24,000 nucleotides of DNA from Alteromonas gilva (GTDB lineage Bacteria > Pseudomonadota > Gammaproteobacteria > Enterobacterales > Alteromonadaceae), in assembly GCF_028595265.1 (NCBI RefSeq), contig NZ_JAQQXP010000004.1, positions 132,179-156,178 of the forward strand. The letters run 5' to 3'. Position numbers and translations under genes: made by a program. The notes under the pieces are model-generated. The model was not told the DNA's origin, made no database searches, and saw only the letters and a program-made list of their open reading frames with translations. This document shows positions 1-8,518 of the stretch, one piece after another. Position 1 is the stretch's first letter, and each line of letters starts with the position of its first letter.

Positions 1-841
1 CAACTGCCTGCTGCATCCAGTGTGCAGCGGACATGCCACCACCCAAATTACGAGCATTGGACGCTAAAGTTTCAGCTAAGGACGCCTGAGCTTGATTTAC
101 CTCGTCTTCGTTCTTCGATTTTCTCGCTGCTTGGACAGCTAGTTTCCAGTACTCTTCAGCACGGTGAAAATCACCTTCATTCTCTGCGCGTTCGGCTGAT
201 TCCTTGGCAATGCTAAGGAGTTCATCAGTATCGTCCGACCCGAAGTCAAGCAGTAAAGATATTGACCTAGCTGTTAAGAATTTCTTGTCTTCCGCCGAGT
301 AGTCACGCACCCATGAGAGAAGCAAGTTATAGACGCTTTTAAAGTACTTTGCTTCCTTCCGCCGAAAAAGTGCTGCAAGACGTAAAGCTCGCTCCGCGTA
401 TTCTGCACAATATGTCCAATGCTCAATATCGAAGTGAGTTTTTGCACAAGTGAGAAATTCCTGAATCGCTGTCCATGCGTGTTTCGGATCACGGCTTCTT
501 AGCCAGAGAACATCGAAAACTCTTGCCCGAAGTACACTGGGATTCAGGTATTGAACGGTGGTCTTGAGCTCTTGAAGTTCGTCTTCCACCATATCAGATG
601 GGATTGGAGACCGCCCGTCTGCTGTTTGTATTAAAGGACCATACGGCGAACCAGCATCCTCATATTTTGAATGATAAGAGGCTATGGCCGCCAACGTTTT
701 CAAACACGCACGCTCGTTTTCTGTTAACGCTTCATCGTCACAACGTTGTCGAAGGTCGCCTTGGTAGTAGTCGCAATCATAGCGATCACTTTGCACAATC
801 ACATCATCTGCAATGTTCGCCGCGCGCTCATTCGCCGTCAT
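1..841 (-). CDS. Hypothetical helical protein, N-terminal 280 codons; the ORF runs off the left window edge and is absent from the supplied ORF track
   Basis: Manual reverse-complement translation from the ATG at 841-839 gives MTANERAANIADDVIVQSDRYDCDYYQGDL...RARVFDVLWLRSRDPKHAWTAIQEF...AEEYWKLAVQAARKSKNEDEV...AAHWMQQAV. There is no stop down to position 1. Composition is protein-like. A weak AGGA lies about 9 nt upstream. Confidence 0.6.
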   Translation of the reverse strand, partial: MTANERAANIADDVIVQSDRYDCDYYQGDLRQRCDDEALTENERACLKTLAAIASYHSKYEDAGSPYGPLIQTADGRSPIPSDMVEDELQELKTTVQYLNPSVLRARVFDVLWLRSRDPKHAWTAIQEFLTCAKTHFDIEHWTYCAEYAERALRLAALFRRKEAKYFKSVYNLLLSWVRDYSAEDKKFLTARSISLLLDFGSDDTDELLSIAKESAERAENEGDFHRAEEYWKLAVQAARKSKNEDEVNQAQASLAETLASNARNLGGGMSAAHWMQQAV

Positions 842-865
842 TTCAGGTATCCTATAGGAAATCTA

Positions 866-936
866 CCGCACCAATAAGCAGCGGAGCGTCAGCGACGTTC
901 GGCGACCAACGGGAGCGAATGTAATTGGATTCTTAC
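866..936 (-). repeat. attC-like repeat, degenerate copy D
   Basis: The right end gggagcgaatgtaattggattcttac parallels copy C (ggcgagcgacataatgtgattgttagc). The stop codon of the upstream minus-strand ORF (933-935) lies in its end. The left part ccaataagcagcgg parallels cacataaggcagag of copy C. Confidence 0.3.
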
Positions 937-1472
937 ATCGCAGCTCTGATGAAAGACATCCAGTCCCTATGAAGCTTTTTTAGCATCTGATATAAGTCAA
1001 CGTCCTGTCCATTAATGCTTACTGAGTACAAATAATGGTCGAAGGCACCACATACTGCTTCAGGGTGCCCACATACCGCAATTGGTGAGCCACTGGTCAC
1101 GGTATAATTTTCCCCCTGCTTTTCAATTTCGACCTTTTTGAAATGCTTTGCCTTATTACATAGTTTTCTTACTGTCTCTTGATACGCGCAGGTTTCTGGG
1201 AAGTCCTCTAAGCCATTGTAATAAGACTTAAGCTCCTTGGGTACCTTTCCAACGGAAAATGGATTAAATTGCCTTACACATTCAGTCTTGCAAGAGTTTT
1301 GAATAGACTCATCTCTCAAATACCACTCAAATAAGTGATTCATTCCGAACACCACATTAAAAAGCAAATAATCATATTTTGGATGCGAAAAGCACTCTCC
1401 TAGCTGTATTAATTCCTGCTCACATTTTTCGAGTAGGTGATGGTAGTTGTCCAGAGATAATAAACTCAACAC
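933..1472 (-). CDS. Hypothetical protein (cassette-like ORF); start re-assigned downstream of the repeat
   Basis: The ORF is open from 933. AGGAGG (minus strand, 1481-1476) is followed by GTG at 1472 or TTG at 1469. The first ~51 codons of the 933..1625 track ORF lie across repeat copy C, which is intergenic in its other copies. Confidence 0.6.
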   Translation of the reverse strand: MLSLLSLDNYHHLLEKCEQELIQLGECFSHPKYDYLLFNVVFGMNHLFEWYLRDESIQNSCKTECVRQFNPFSVGKVPKELKSYYNGLEDFPETCAYQETVRKLCNKAKHFKKVEIEKQGENYTVTSGSPIAVCGHPEAVCGAFDHYLYSVSINGQDVDLYQMLKKLHRDWMSFIRAAM

Positions 1473-1492
1473 ATACCTCCTGTGCGATGTGA

Positions 1493-1599
1493 CGCCCACA
1501 TAAGGCAGAGTTACGCATGGGCTAAAATCCGAGCGAAGCGACAGTGCCCATGCGTTACTGTCCCAGGGAGCCGGCGAGCGACATAATGTGATTGTTAGC
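1493..1599 (-). repeat. attC-like imperfect palindrome, copy C
   Basis: It contains a 10-bp perfect stem, acgcatgggc/gcccatgcgt. It shares the core GGCTAWAAT..GCGAAGC and the end GCGACATAAT..GATTGTTAG with copies A and B. The fic stop (1607-1609) lies 8 nt from its TAAC end. Confidence 0.45.
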
Positions 1600-1606
1600 T
1601 CCCGAT

Positions 1607-2971
1607 CTATTTTTTCGCATTCCAATCTTTAAGAATTTTCTTTTGGCTTACCATGCTGAACACCCATTCACGACCTTGTTTTTCCTTTTTGAAGAGTTTC
1701 ATATCGACAAGGCCATTGAGTGCAGATGATGCGGTATTATAGGAACATCCTAAGTTTTCTTTGACATTCGAAGCCGTAAAAAAATGAGCAACACCACTCC
1801 GTGCTACTTGGAATATTTTCTGCTGTTTATCAGATAGTTTTTTATATAAACCAGACTTCCATAGCCAAACGTTAAACTCTTCAGCTTCTTTTAGAGTTCG
1901 TTGGTAAGAATCCTTAAATTTGTTTATCGCTCTAATAATGATTGAGCATTGATAATCAATGAAATAAGTCAAATCCATTTCGTCTGATTCTGTATACAGA
2001 TAACTTTTCCCGTATTGAACAGGTGCATTTTTTAACAGCAGGCTTATAGTGATGTACCTAAATGCAGAAAAATCATTTTTGAACATATACCAATAGAAAA
2101 GTGCCCGTGCAACTCGCCCATTACCATCTCTAAATGGATGCTCAAAACCGATGAGAAAATGAATTATGATCGCCTTTACCAATGGATGGAAGTAGTCACG
2201 ATTATCTGTATCGTGATGACTTTCATTTACCCAACTACAGATTTTTTTCAAACGAGCTTTCAGATTTTCAGCTAAAGGTGGCTGATGAACAACATTACCC
2301 TCCGCATCAACAACTTTCACATCATCAGTTTTCCTAAACACACCGGGGGTGTAGTTATCATCGTCAATCCCATCGACTCCGATTTGATGTAAGTCCCTAA
2401 TTAAATCAGGTGTTAGATCTTTTTCTCTGTTCTCCCATGCAAATTTCATCATCTTAAAATTACCGACGATCATCTTTTCATCTAGGCTTCTAGGCTTGCG
2501 TTTCCTCTTTAACAAGTCTTTTGCAACTTCAGTAGTAGTAGCAGCCCCTTCAAGTTGGCTGCTGCTTATTGCTTCATCCTCGACCAAATCATTTAATAAG
2601 TATTCAAGATGCTTTTCTTCACCGATTTTTGAACACATCCACTCGAGAGAAGCGGTCGTTGTGTTCCTGTCTGTTTCACTTATGGCTTTTTGAATGTTGG
2701 GAGTCAGAAAAAAACGCCCTAATTCATTCGAATCACCGATAGGAAGAATTCTTTTTAATTGTCTCAATCTAGCAGTTTTCACAATTGACCATGCTAAATC
2801 TTTATCTAGATCTTTGGAAAATCTATAACGAAGCTGGTCATAATGAAGGTATCTTCCTTTATTATCTGTAGGAGATAAAAGTCCGATATATTCTTTTAGG
2901 TGCTCACTGTGCTTCTCCAGCGCAAGCTGCAAAGGGTTACTGATAAGTTCTTTTGGTGGAGAAGCAATCAT
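1607..2971 (-). CDS. Fic-family protein (AMPylase-type) with an N-terminal Fic_N-like region and a C-terminal wHTH-like tail
   Basis: The canonical Fic motif HPFRDGNGRVARAL is present. An upstream SSQLEG matches the intramolecular inhibitory motif [ST]xxxE[GN]. The ORF is 454 aa with an ATG start. Confidence 0.9.
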   Translation of the reverse strand: MIASPPKELISNPLQLALEKHSEHLKEYIGLLSPTDNKGRYLHYDQLRYRFSKDLDKDLAWSIVKTARLRQLKRILPIGDSNELGRFFLTPNIQKAISETDRNTTTASLEWMCSKIGEEKHLEYLLNDLVEDEAISSSQLEGAATTTEVAKDLLKRKRKPRSLDEKMIVGNFKMMKFAWENREKDLTPDLIRDLHQIGVDGIDDDNYTPGVFRKTDDVKVVDAEGNVVHQPPLAENLKARLKKICSWVNESHHDTDNRDYFHPLVKAIIIHFLIGFEHPFRDGNGRVARALFYWYMFKNDFSAFRYITISLLLKNAPVQYGKSYLYTESDEMDLTYFIDYQCSIIIRAINKFKDSYQRTLKEAEEFNVWLWKSGLYKKLSDKQQKIFQVARSGVAHFFTASNVKENLGCSYNTASSALNGLVDMKLFKKEKQGREWVFSMVSQKKILKDWNAKK

Positions 2972-2977
2972 ATTAAT

Positions 2978-3052
2978 CTCAAAATTGTGAATAATTGAGA
3001 CAAGAGTATATGAAAAACCAGGCTTTGTCTCAAAAAAGTTAAAAATTGAGAT
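2978..3052. promoter_or_regulatory. Two copies of the inverted repeat TCTCAA-N12-TTGAGA upstream of fic (putative operators)
   Basis: Copy 1 is 2978-3001 (tctcaa aattgtgaataa ttgaga). Copy 2 is 3029-3052 (tctcaa aaaagttaaaaa ttgaga). Half-sites and the 12-nt spacing are identical. Copy 1 begins 7 nt from the fic ATG. Confidence 0.4.
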
Positions 3053-3058
3053 AAGGGA

Positions 3059-3162
3059 GCTAAATTTAAGCTTTTGAGTGCAAACATGGGGCTATAATCG
3101 CGAAGCGGACCCGTGTTTACGTCCCAGCGAACGAAGTGAGTGACAAAAGCGTTTTGTTAACA
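3059..3162 (-). repeat. attC-like imperfect palindrome, copy A
   Basis: Outer stem is gcttttg/caaaagc and inner stem is aaaca.ggg/ccc.tgttt. The core is GGCTATAATCGCGAAGC. The GTTAAC end contains the stop codon (3157-3159) of the upstream minus-strand ORF. Confidence 0.5.
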
Positions 3163-3546
3163 CACATTGTTGAGAAGATCTCCAAAACCCCAAATGACGG
3201 TGCCTACGATCGTTATTAAAACACCTTGATAAACTTTAGAGCCAATTGCACGGTCTTCTGAGCTCGTCACCATGACTTTACCTTCGTGATCGAGCTCTGC
3301 AAAACCAGACGTAGATGAATTGGCTTTATAAACACCTCGAACAAAAATTGGGGAACTTATGAGTAATAGTCCAGAAACCGTTATCAATGAACCGAATCTG
3401 GAAAACCATAACCAATCTGATTGAAACACTGATATTCCAATACCAATTAACCCCATAGCTAAAGCAAAAGAAGCGACAGCAGTTTTGTTTCCTAGAATCT
3501 TAATATAAGGATCGTGCTTATGTTTATCTATGCTACTTGAGTTCAA
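3157..3546 (-). CDS. Small integral membrane protein, hypothetical
   Basis: The 129-aa ORF has several hydrophobic segments (AVASFALAMGLIGIGISVF, LITVSGLLLISSPIF, GVLITIVGTVIWGF). It starts at TTG, preceded by AAGGA about 6-7 nt upstream. Confidence 0.6.
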   Translation of the reverse strand: MNSSSIDKHKHDPYIKILGNKTAVASFALAMGLIGIGISVFQSDWLWFSRFGSLITVSGLLLISSPIFVRGVYKANSSTSGFAELDHEGKVMVTSSEDRAIGSKVYQGVLITIVGTVIWGFGDLLNNVC

Positions 3547-3562
3547 AAAATTTCCTTGTGGG

Positions 3563-3639
3563 TGCTAACACCTAAGTATGGGGCACAGGCAGGCTATAAT
3601 TGCGAAGCCGCCTGCGGGCGACATAATTTTGTTGTTATG
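3563..3639 (-). repeat. attC-like imperfect palindrome, copy B
   Basis: On the minus strand it reads ATAACAACAAAATTATGTCGCC...GGCTTCGCAATTATAGCC...CTTAGGTGTTAGCAC. TAACA/TGTTA termini pair and the arms are bulged. The stop of the upstream ORF (3635-3637) lies inside its TAAC end. Confidence 0.5.
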
Positions 3640-4110
3640 TATCATTAACCGATTTAGCCACAACGAACCCACTGAAACCGATGGCTGACTCGATATACCA
3701 GCCGTTGTAATTATTACTTTCAAGATAATTTACTGTAGTTTCGATATCATCTTTCCATATATCGATTCCAGTTTTGGCTATTATTCTTTTCTTCTTCGAA
3801 GAGAGAGCTAATCGGCACGTTTTCAATGTCAATGATAATCGAATATGCAGTATGCACGAAATAATATATGGTAACTTCCGTGAAGGTGATTTCCGAAAAA
3901 TCGGTTTCTTTATCGGGGTAGCCAAAACCCAAATATAATTTTACAGTTTTGCCGTGGCCCGGAAACTTCGTATTTTTGACGATGATAATCGTGAAACCTC
4001 AATATAGCCTTATCAGCTTCCTTGGCACATAGACACAATGACTTCCTGTGAAATGCTATATTTTCGTTATGAAATGTTACCAATTCAAATAGTGGCGCCA
4101 CTATAGACAT
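3635..4110 (-). pseudogene. Probable frameshifted cassette gene read across three frames
   Basis: Three consecutive overlapping minus-strand ORFs in three frames each look protein-like. They read MSIVAPLFELVTFHNENIAF..KAIL, then GFTIIIVKNTKFPGHGKTVKLYLGFGYPDKETDFSEITFTEV..SSLFEEEK, then IAKTGIDIWKDDIETTVNYLESNNYNGWYIESAIGFSGF. Junctions are near 4000 and near 3785. Confidence 0.4.
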
Positions 4111-4154
4111 GAGTTTTAATAGAGGGGTTGTTATTCTTGACAGCAAAACAGCGA

Positions 4155-4184
4155 TAAGAAAAAGCCCGGGTGATTCCGGGCTTT
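4155..4184 (-). terminator. Rho-independent terminator after the large surface-protein gene
   Basis: Stem is aaagcccgg (4161-4169) / ccgggcttt (4176-4184) with a 6-nt loop. On the minus strand it is followed by TTTTTCTT. Confidence 0.7.
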
Positions 4185-4191
4185 CTATTAC

Positions 4192-7100
4192 TTACCAGCT
4201 TACATCCGTTTCGACAAATTCTCCGCCATTATCTACAGCGCGTATTGTCACTGTCAGGCTTGGGTAATCTGACTTACGGAAGTAAATCACCTTACCTGCA
4301 CGGAAGTCGACTTGGCCTTCCCATGTGTAATAGTAATTCACAATCTCGCCATCTTCGTCAGTACAGTTTGACCGGACATAGTAACGATCACCGCTGTCTT
4401 CCAATTCTGGCAAACAAATTGGCGGAATATTTGGCAATACATTGATAACCGTCGTGTATTCACCCACCTGAGCGTACTCAGAAGTCACCACCAACTTAAC
4501 TTCAAATGATCCAGCTTCATTGAATTCAATGTCAGTCGATGACACTGTGGAGCTCGACAGCTCTGCACCGTCCAAGAACCACTGATAGGTATCAGCATAA
4601 TCTTTTGGATGGCCAGGGTCTGCATATGCTCTCATGCCGACTCTTAATGGAGCACGGTTGAACTCATTGCTCGGTGACTCAACTAATTCAATTTCCATAG
4701 GGTCGGCATCCAGAATGTCTACGAACTCTGAGAAGTCACGCTCATTACCACGGTTATCTCTTACTCTTACTGTGACAAGATGAAGCCCAGGTTCATGAAC
4801 GGTGAAGTAGATGAAGTCATTACTATTTCTGGTAATCTCAATTGCATTCTCATCCACCAGCCACTCATACGTAAATTCAACGCCAGGCACGTCAGTATCG
4901 ATACCATTGATTCTGGCCGAGCCCTGTGAAGGTGCCACAGCAATCTTTGTATCTACTTCAAACTGGCCATCAGGGAACTCATACCTATGTGTAACAACGG
5001 TTTCAGTCTCTGAAGCAAAGGTTTCTGCTTTCAGTCCATTAACCCAAGCAGAATATTTAAAAGTAGCGATTCCACCAACAATGTCGGTTTCTTTTACCAG
5101 GTATTCCACTTCGCTTGCGTTCACAACAGCGCCGTCTGGAAGCTCTATTTCCTCTATGATATCTAAATTCAAGCTTGAGCTGGACGCCCTTGCAGAACCA
5201 GATATCTTCGCTACAAAGCCAGCTTCTGCGTAACGAGGGGTATCAATATTGACTCTCAATGGCTCTGGAGCAAGAACCCTAGTTTTCATTTTATCTGAAG
5301 CATAAGATTGCTCGCCCACGGTTTCACTTGTGGAATCTAAACGATACCGAACGTTCACATAGAAATCTGAATTCGCCATATGGTTAAAGGTATCAGTTCC
5401 TTCAGTCCATGTAGCTCCTTCATCTACTGACCACTCAAATACACCATCTGAAGCACCAACCAAGTCATCCGCAACAACAGCCGTGAATGTACCTTCCTGA
5501 CCTTCCAGCAACGTTGTGTCACCTTCAACTTCAATGTCAGCAACTTCATAACCAACAGCTTCCACTGTAGCACTGTAAGAAATCACACCAGTCAGTCTGT
5601 TTTCTGTTCTAACGCGATAGAACTTGGTGCCCGGCTCATTCATTCTAACACTGAAGAAATTAGTCACATTTTCAGTTTCACTCCAAGCAACACCATCATC
5701 AGACATTTCCCAGACAACTCCTGCTGAGGCATCTCTATCATTACGGCTGGCATACTGGAATCGTACAGTTGTACCAAATGGCACTTCTTCAGTGATCACT
5801 ACGTCACTTAGCTCACCTTCGATTGCGGTGCCTTTAAGGGTTTCAACTCGATGAGCACGAGAATCAATTTGCTGTTCAAATCCTGGAACGCCTGAAATGG
5901 CATCCATCAGCACATAGATATAACTGCCACTATCGAAAATGGTTTGGCCATCCATTATAAATTTAGCCTCACCAGATGCGTTAACCTGAACCGCATCGCC
6001 AATACGGACATACTCTCGCTCATCGTTCCGATAAGCTAGTTGGGCAGTCCACTCACCCATGCTGTCAGTATCATAGATGTATGACTTAGCACGACGGTCG
6101 TAGAAACCAACATTGGCAGTGAACTCAATAGTGTCTTCAGTTGTCGTTTCACCGACAACATCACTGATGACATAAGCCTTGGTCCGTGAATCTGGAGTGA
6201 TTACTGCGGTAAAGTTTTCAGCCACCTTAGACTCTGGCACGCGACGATACTGAACATCAACTTCATATTCTACTTCTGACCATACAGGCGCACTAGTTTC
6301 ACCCACACGCTCAATACGGCCTCTATAATTCTTTAAACTAAACCTGTCAGAACCACGATAGTTTACTGTTTCAGTCATTCCTTGAGCTGATATATTCAGA
6401 TCAATGTACGAATTCGCAGCAGCCAGATTGTAATCCGTTAATCGCTTTGAATTGTGGGGCATTGAATACAAGCCTTCCGAAATTCTACCTTTATCGGAAA
6501 TTACAAAGTCTAGCTCGGGACGCTCCAATGCTTCTATCGTCATAGAGTCACTATATGCAGCAACTTTTTCACCATTGTTATTATGGTAATAGACCGTGTA
6601 ACCAATCTCGTGCGTCCCAATGTCGTTTATAACGCCTTCCAGGTTATATCCCCGCCCCTGGAAAGTAGGCTCTAAACCATCTGGAATGTTATCAAACTCA
6701 ACCGTACAGCCTTTACGGATAGAAAGTGAAAGCGCAGCTGCAGCTTCGTCAGTGGCCGCGAAATAACACTTATCACCTTCAGACTGATAAAAATCCACAT
6801 CCATCTCAGTGACTTCTGAGTAAACTTGCGGCGGCGGATTGTTGAAGTTGAACTCTGACATCATGTATTCAAGCTTGAAGTTGCGAACCATCTCATTACC
6901 GCCACTATCAGAAGCCACTACTTCGACGTTCAAAACCTGACTGGGTAGAATTTCTGGATCACGCTTCAGCAGCACAATATTGTCTTGCACTACATCAATG
7001 TCTGCATCCTCACCATTTATCTTCACGGATGTGATGGTAGAGCCATCCGCCCACCCCCCATGCGCAAAGAAAGCCACGTCTTCCAGGAAGTACGTATCTA

Positions 7101-8483: not shown

Positions 8484-8492
8484 AAACAGATA

Positions 8493-8518
8493 GAAAAAAG
8501 CCTGCATGATTGCAGGCT
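8493..8518 (-). terminator. Rho-independent terminator after the Cys-rich protein gene
   Basis: Stem is agcctgca (8499-8506) / tgcaggct (8511-8518) with a 4-nt loop. On the minus strand it is followed by TTTTTT. Confidence 0.7.

Follow-up and report, generated by a model that had tools for sequence, protein, structure and literature searches.

A probable decaying CALIN fragment with an IS1111-type edge on a likely conjugative plasmid of Alteromonas gilva

Sedentary chromosomal integrons are thought to be a reservoir of cassettes for mobile elements, anti-phage defence genes have already been reported as integron cassettes, and, to our knowledge, intermediates of cassette traffic have rarely been caught. 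An attC-associated group of IS1111 insertion sequences (ISs), with ISPst6, ISKpn4, and ISPa25 among its members, was reportedly described by Tetu & Holmes 2008 and Post & Hall 2009. The group is also treated by Siddiquee et al. 2024 (PMC11187229), with IS1111 family members targeting one end of attC sites on record there. Clusters of attC sites lacking an integron-integrase (CALINs) were described by Cury et al. 2016 (PMC4889954), with 83% having <6 sites, 3.5% having IntI on another replicon, and 38% adjoining an IS. Integrase-less attC clusters, attC-targeting IS1111 elements, and genus-typical attC families are, as components, already known. Here we describe an array of small genes in a 24,000-nt stretch of Alteromonas gilva DNA (the window; positions 132179-156178 of contig C4 of the host genome G000, whose contigs C1-C5 were searched over 4.57 Mb). 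Window positions 1487-4058 are very probably a three-cassette, integrase-less, decaying fragment of an Alteromonas-type integron array, a CALIN, carried by a plasmid of ~176 kb.

Like previously described CALINs, the window contains at least two attC sites in the same orientation, <4 kb apart, with no integrase gene (intI) nearby, and in having <6 sites, an IntI on another replicon, and an adjoining IS end it falls within common or documented CALIN arrangements. It differs in being unusually decayed, with GTT lost in two sites and one cassette gene reduced to a pseudogene, in its location, most likely on a conjugative plasmid in an Alteromonas-group host, and in having as its edge the apparent end of an attC-targeting IS, not an ordinary IS. 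The attC family to which the array belongs resembles that of sedentary chromosomal integrons of the Vibrio VCR type in its genus-wide spread and in its dozens of copies per genome; the window array itself differs from such integrons, being neither on the chromosome nor attached to intI and attI.

The attC sites and their family

Read directly, the sequence at 842-4146 holds five open reading frames (ORFs), with imperfect palindromes between them. An earlier sequence-only reading had taken four of these palindromes for related, attC-like repeats, each just 3' of an ORF, with all flanking ORFs pointing the same way, and had suggested an attC covariance model as a check. The shared direction was borne out, the ORFs lying on the minus strand throughout. 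A covariance model (R1) derived from an alignment (A1) of 26 chromosomal copies of the repeat lying beside intI was run unfiltered against the window and its flanking sequence on either side, and matched three sites on the plus strand, at 1487-1600 (79.8 bits, E 3e-18), 3058-3162 (44.7 bits, E 5e-9), and 3563-3640 (30.5 bits, E 3e-5). The sites share one orientation and are separated by gaps of 1458 and 401 nt. As the cassettes are read on the minus strand, the plus strand is the bottom strand, and the strand of the R1 matches thus fixes the expected attC polarity. The same three sites were recovered by an nhmmer profile of chromosomal copies only, with 3563-3640 found at E 4e-9. A TAAC box at the R'' end is present in all three, the R1 alignment positions an extrahelical base in each, and each lies where the earlier reading had placed it relative to its ORF, with two TAA stops (3157-3159 and 3635-3637) sharing bases with the TAAC box, and the TAG stop of the Fic gene 9 nt before the TAAC box. 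Judged by these matches, which lie far beyond chance, three of the four repeats are real attC sites, namely those of cassette 3 (1487-1600, 114 nt, the second of the four), cassette 2 (3058-3162, full length, the third), and cassette 1 (3563-3640, 78 nt, the fourth), annotated on the minus strand with their cassettes.

The first repeat, at 866-936 (861-938 on the minus strand in our annotation), did not hold up. R1 scores it at only 7.5 bits, with an E value of 0.064 even with a search space of 115 nt, the chromosome-only profile finds no match there, no attC-like fold is formed, and 44 of 200 shuffles do as well as it does in its best pairwise comparison with members of the family. It is not supported as an attC site and is at best an unrecognisable relic of one. 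Additionally, the end GTGTTAGCAC, which had been assigned to the second copy ("copy B"), was mislabelled, and is the end of the 3563-3640 copy.

The consensus fold of A1 comprises a 5-bp R box (TAAC./.GTTA), a 2-nt unpaired spacer, an L box, and a long stem, with one extrahelical base in the L box on the 3' arm of the bottom strand, and with compensatory changes in 22 of its 31 pairs. Members of the family are ~100-118 nt long with ends of the form TAACAAAC...GCCCCTTA..GGGYGTTA, the 5' end reading ATAACAAAC... and the 3' end ...GCCCCTTA..GGGYGTTA. We take this arrangement of R box, spacer, L box, and extrahelical base, together with the ends, to be like that of Vibrio VCR-type attC sites; a difference is that within the family the L-box extrahelical base may be A, C, G, or T. 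R1 finds matches in 76 of the 78 other genomes of the genus that form our comparison set, mostly dozens per genome and often in several clusters.

The host encodes a single true integron integrase (C1:2607178-2608119; 437 bits against the TIGR02249 cut-off of 265), whose closest named relatives are from Aestuariibacter, Marisediminitalea, and Alteromonas species, which places the host in the Alteromonas group. An iterated nhmmer search of the whole genome, started from the window copies, places ~37 copies of the same repeat family at C1:2572368-2605864, adjoining intI, a further ~10 at C1:253638-271697, and three in the window, with the copies within each array sharing one orientation. In the 4.57-Mb genome no family copy was found outside those three arrays but for one spurious match (E 0.11). 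The window attCs are, from these comparisons, recognisably homologous to the sites on which the chromosomal IntI acts, in this genome and across the whole genus. No integron integrase is encoded on C4 (TIGR02249), the only match above cut-off being that on C1, and the earlier proposal of an attC cluster lacking an integrase is in agreement with these results; the other form of that proposal, the distal part of a sedentary integron, is dropped because the integron lies on a different replicon.

These observations also bear on whether the repeats might be REP- or MITE-like intergenic repeats, or plain terminators, with no relation to integrons, a reading that imperfect palindromes following ORFs could suggest. 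A scatter of the family across the genome, which had been named as the observation that would speak for such elements, is absent, the copies being limited to three arrays, one of which lies beside intI. The single polarity of the copies, the conserved TAAC...GTTA ends with covarying stems, and the cassette junctions at G|TT described below are likewise at odds with it. The reading is contradicted, and we assign it next to no likelihood.

Several features of the chromosomal arrays were also observed. The sedentary integron of the host spans C1:2572368-2608131 and consists of intI, a first cassette whose attC is heterologous (TCTAAC...GTTATGC), and then the ~37 family attCs, with a probable attI near C1:2606880 (AAATTG|TTAGAGC). 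The fold stability of the chromosomal family attCs drops with distance from intI, and the attC at C1:2587733-2587847 has a central loop inverted with respect to the family, with nhmmer matching it on both strands. The array at C1:253638-271697 is a second integrase-less attC cluster, on the same strand as the integron and 2.3 Mb from intI, in which some sites fold well, with energies down to -34 kcal/mol.

Decay of the sites and the cassettes they carry

Compared with the attC core motifs, RYYYAAC for R'' and G|TTRRRY for R', the R' box reads GTTAGCA at 3563-3640, GTCACAT at 1487-1600, and TTTAGCT at 3058-3162, where relatives of the last two sites have GTTAG. The site at 1487-1600 is the best preserved in sequence, with up to 92% identity to attCs of other species, which retain CCCCTTATGTGGGTGTTAG, but has GTC in place of the invariant GTT and a damaged outer stem. 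The site at 3058-3162 is 86-90% identical to subfamily members of other species, which retain GCGCCCCAAAGCTTAAAGTTAG, and has TTT for GTT in R' and three substitutions in the L' stem. Alignment of both sites with their closest subfamily members places window-specific substitutions at invariant positions alongside the stem-breaking changes. The site at 3563-3640 has lost its centre by deletion and is the sole window site to keep both its TAAC and GTTAGCA boxes. The sequence-only reading had described the third and fourth copies as degenerate at one end; this is correct for 3058-3162, damaged at R', and not for 3563-3640, whose ends are intact, and R' damage is found at 1487-1600 as well.

That reading had also called for bottom-strand folding and a search for extrahelical bases, which the family consensus and the model alignment contain, with present-day folds of the window sites being weak. 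The minimum free energy (MFE) fold of 3563-3640, the only one in which the R box is paired, has an energy of -12.6 kcal/mol (z -1.4), that of 3058-3162 has -13.3 kcal/mol (z -0.8), and that of 1487-1600 has -18 kcal/mol (z -1.3), compared with -30.9 kcal/mol (z -7.2) and a full attC hairpin for a chromosomal relative of the latter. At -0.13 to -0.16 kcal/mol per nt, the window sites resemble the eroded, intI-distal chromosomal sites, with intI-proximal sites ranging from -0.22 to -0.33. With GTT lost in two of three attCs, hairpin stability mostly lost in all three, and one gene broken, the array has the sequence features of a fossil, and would now be recombinationally inert.

This state of decay has to be set against the possibility that the array is a working satellite, in which the chromosomal IntI acts in trans and cassettes are still swapped between chromosome and plasmid. 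The cell that carries the array also has an intact intI and chromosomal attCs of the family seen in the window, the site at 3563-3640 retains TAAC/GTTA, L boxes, and an extrahelical base, and CALINs with an IntI on another replicon are documented (PMC4889954). Excision, however, requires two competent sites, and the other two have GTC and TTT for GTT and fold no better than shuffles. Furthermore, the chromosomal arrays contain no copy of any plasmid cassette, and one of the three cassettes is a pseudogene. A working satellite is, in our estimation, quite improbable; in a fossil array IntI supplied in trans would act at most weakly, on 3563-3640, and the cassettes would be effectively fixed.

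Cassette 3 (span 1493-3063) carries a 454-aa Fic-domain protein gene (1607-2971, minus strand; Pfam Fic, E 1.8e-17) that is SoFic-like. Whilst the protein matches the PADLOC SoFic model at 145.8 bits (~146), it scores just 36 bits against the NCBIfam SoFic equivalog with its cut-off of 550, which makes it a distant SoFic relative, and compared with known anti-phage cassettes its defence role is a prediction. An exact-protein look-up returned nothing on record. Over window positions 1569-3063, the Fic cassette shares 92.7% nucleotide identity with a stretch of G007:C511, in which the attC that precedes it is another one, well preserved (51 bits). Through ...GGGGCG the two are unrelated, and from TTAG onwards they are homologous, equivalent to the integrase crossover G|TT. 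Homology thus starts at G|TT for the same Fic cassette in differing arrays, and the broken-gene cassette described below starts at G|TT in relatives and one base inside it in the window. Upstream of fic, at 2978-3052, lie twin TCTCAA-N12-TTGAGA inverted repeats which are kept in the G007 copy and are hence part of the Fic cassette. These repeats are probably the cassette's own operator/promoter, a region from which Fic would be expressed; other cassettes in the array would be expressed only through such cassette-internal promoters or by read-through.

Cassette 2 (span 3065-3568) has its ORF between two attC matches, and encodes a 129-aa predicted small membrane protein (3157-3546, minus strand) with no Pfam, PADLOC, or NCBIfam match and no homologue among the 78 genus genomes. 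No homologues of the plasmid cassette genes were found in the host chromosome and its arrays.

The IS edge and the plasmid

Cassette 1 (3569-4031, minus strand) has counterparts in G023, G058, and G044, each flanked there by strong attCs (90-120 bits) and 82-85% identical to it at the nucleotide level, and its gene, of ~128 aa, is intact in the three relatives. A tblastn search with the intact relative protein matches frames -1, -2, and -3 of the window in turn, implying two frameshifts, and the three ORFs read here (3910-4110, 3747-3932, and 3635-3925, in three frames) represent a single pseudogene, consistent with the decayed gene previously suspected among the cargo.

In relatives this cassette starts at G|TTATGTGCC, and in the window it is retained from TATGTGCC on, one base in, and TC, with which an IS end closes, stands in place of GT. 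The upstream edge of the cassette reads ...TAGCATTTCACAGGAAGTCATTGTGTC|TATGTGCC, and the junction of IS remnant and cassette ...CATTGTGTC|TATGTGCC. The ~30-nt stretch at this edge (a 31-nt match) occurs at 94-97% identity, in multiple copies, in 41 of the 78 other genus genomes, often inside attC arrays and at contig ends. Full copies in the relatives are ~1585 bp long and encode a 388-aa protein with DEDD_Tnp_IS110 and Transposase_20 domains, with subterminal inverted repeats (ATGACTCCCT..) and a longer non-coding region of ~300 nt downstream of the transposase gene (tnp). In G072, G067, and G012 the element lies within the R' box of an attC, as ...GGGYGTT|[IS]|ATG... (for example at G072:C1:552700-555000). 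The comparison indicates that an IS1111-type IS, cut back to its left end, forms the array's upstream edge, with just the terminal 27-31 nt retained (4032-4058, plus strand; weak similarity extends perhaps to ~4072). The IS body is not in the window and has no other copy in G000, and by R1 no attC remains upstream of the remnant; given the position of the element at the attC R' box in relatives, the attC that once preceded the remnant must be gone.

Full copies in relatives share with the IS1111-attC group a DEDD IS110-family transposase, subterminal inverted repeats, a longer non-coding region past tnp, and the attC R' position, and the Alteromonas element can be placed, by these features, as a likely member of the group. 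The window differs in that only 27-31 nt of the left end survive. The ~300-nt region downstream of tnp is also the place where a seekRNA would be expected.

Two other upstream boundaries were considered. The sequence ATAACAAC at 4130-4137 was examined as half an attC and rejected, with no model match or fold, and the boundary was set at the IS end at 4032. An attI-like boundary finds no similarity to the chromosomal attI/intI region, with the few short chromosomal matches elsewhere at chance level, and with neither such a match at the upstream edge nor an intI on C4 the array does not have the make-up of a complete integron, in which intI, attI, and Pc adjoin the cassettes.

The carrier contig C4 is 176,393 bp long, with a G+C content of 43% compared with 48.5-49% in the large contigs, and the same 123 nt stand at both of its ends. 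F-type transfer genes begin ~300 nt to the left of the window, past a 585-aa gene, and include a TraF-like S26 peptidase, TrbC/TraW, TraU, TraN, and TraG, and C4 carries the sole MOBH relaxase of the genome. The other contigs, C1, C2, C3, and C5, have repeats in common at their ends and look like pieces of the chromosome. By its gene content C4 is most likely a conjugative plasmid, and the suggestion that the array is carried on or next to a conjugative element agrees with its F-type transfer genes, its MOBH relaxase, and its circular-looking contig. Transfer genes, an Ig-like protein, and a Cys-rich protein are the neighbours within 10 kb of the array. No near match to the array or the transfer region turned up in a plasmid collection, only distant matches to traN/traU of Alteromonas and Pseudoalteromonas plasmids, and none of the other 40 genomes searched contains the transfer region. 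The contig ends (1-123 and 176073-176393) lie in a 99-nt tandem repeat, possibly iterons, and the plasmid assembly is consequently not closed.

The structure of the edge also bears on a second route, in which the integrase inserted the cassettes directly at a secondary, non-att site of the plasmid, with the IS remnant left by a separate insertion and deletion at a later time. Integrases have been reported to insert cassettes outside att sites (bioRxiv 10.1101/2022.09.11.507474; PMC4889954), and the array does lie in a cargo region just upstream of conserved transfer genes. The upstream junction, however, is IS-end|TATG, as at the IS-occupied attCs of relatives, not plasmid|TT-cassette, no attC is left upstream of the remnant, and IS and cassettes are both absent from the host chromosome. 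We regard this route as unlikely; both it and recombination in trans are less likely than a fossil CALIN edged by an IS.

At the other end of the array, a 178-aa gene (933-1469, minus strand) directly follows the attC at 1487-1600. It has no homologue in the genus, and its homologues elsewhere are found in ordinary chromosomal or defence-island settings and not between attCs; it is at most a possible piece of cassette cargo. The next gene encodes the 585-aa DUF7380/DUF4209 protein (Pfam), which scores 561 bits to the PADLOC candidate defence family PDC-S39; its 5' part occupies 1-841 on the minus strand, and it continues to C4:131265, with the transfer genes next. A fifth attC after its stop (TAACAAAAG, L022:18971-19089) was considered and rejected, with 7.1 bits, no fold, and a score no better than shuffles. 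With no supported attC after the 178-aa or the 585-aa gene, the downstream end of the array is placed at or shortly past 1487. The PDC-S39 candidate and the SoFic-like Fic protein form a small predicted defence-gene cluster on the plasmid.

Beyond the IS remnant, a terminator hairpin of the upstream 1395-aa Ig/PKD-like gene (4153-4185, minus strand; a GC-rich inverted repeat with a T run) is the plasmid side of the array's upstream edge, and a similar terminator is also present at 8489-8518. A perfect 16-bp palindrome, ATAGTGGCGCCACTAT, is situated at 4087-4102, between the IS remnant and this terminator. An Rfam scan of window positions 1-4400 gave no relevant match.

Origin and significance of the array

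The cassette block probably owes either its presence on the plasmid or its shortening to an IS-associated rearrangement, one that took place in a former Alteromonas host, in which case the array would not have been built cassette by cassette in the present cell. A more specific proposal, in which a guide-RNA-directed, attC-targeting element of the IS1111 type moved a set of cassettes from a chromosomal integron, the SoFic-like candidate among them, onto the conjugative plasmid, or truncated that set, is tentative and on balance doubtful.

Several points weigh against an IS-edged CALIN fragment on a plasmid, or against parts of this interpretation. The window sites are called as attCs from their homology and their alignment to the model and not from the structure they have today, and a canonical hairpin is found in none of their MFE folds except, in part, that of 3563-3640. 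The circularity of C4 rests on the 123-nt overlap, which falls within the 99-nt tandem repeat. The IS-mediated origin is drawn from a remnant of 27-31 nt, and neither an empty plasmid site nor a donor site with IS and cassettes was found. Additionally, neither the first repeat nor the possible fifth site left of the window is detectable as an attC, which leaves the downstream end undefined, and the 178-aa and 585-aa genes may be plasmid cargo, not cassettes.

The cassettes of this plasmid carry genus-typical attCs and have near-identical or similar copies in the arrays of other species, with none in the host chromosome. The locus is a concrete example of cassette traffic between chromosomal arrays and plasmids in marine bacteria, with the apparent end of an attC-targeting IS at the boundary, and an example also of the decay of an array after its separation from the integrase, leaving the known picture unchanged. 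If true, transfer by IS1111-type elements would be an integrase-independent route by which cassettes of Alteromonas sedentary integrons become conjugatively mobile between species.

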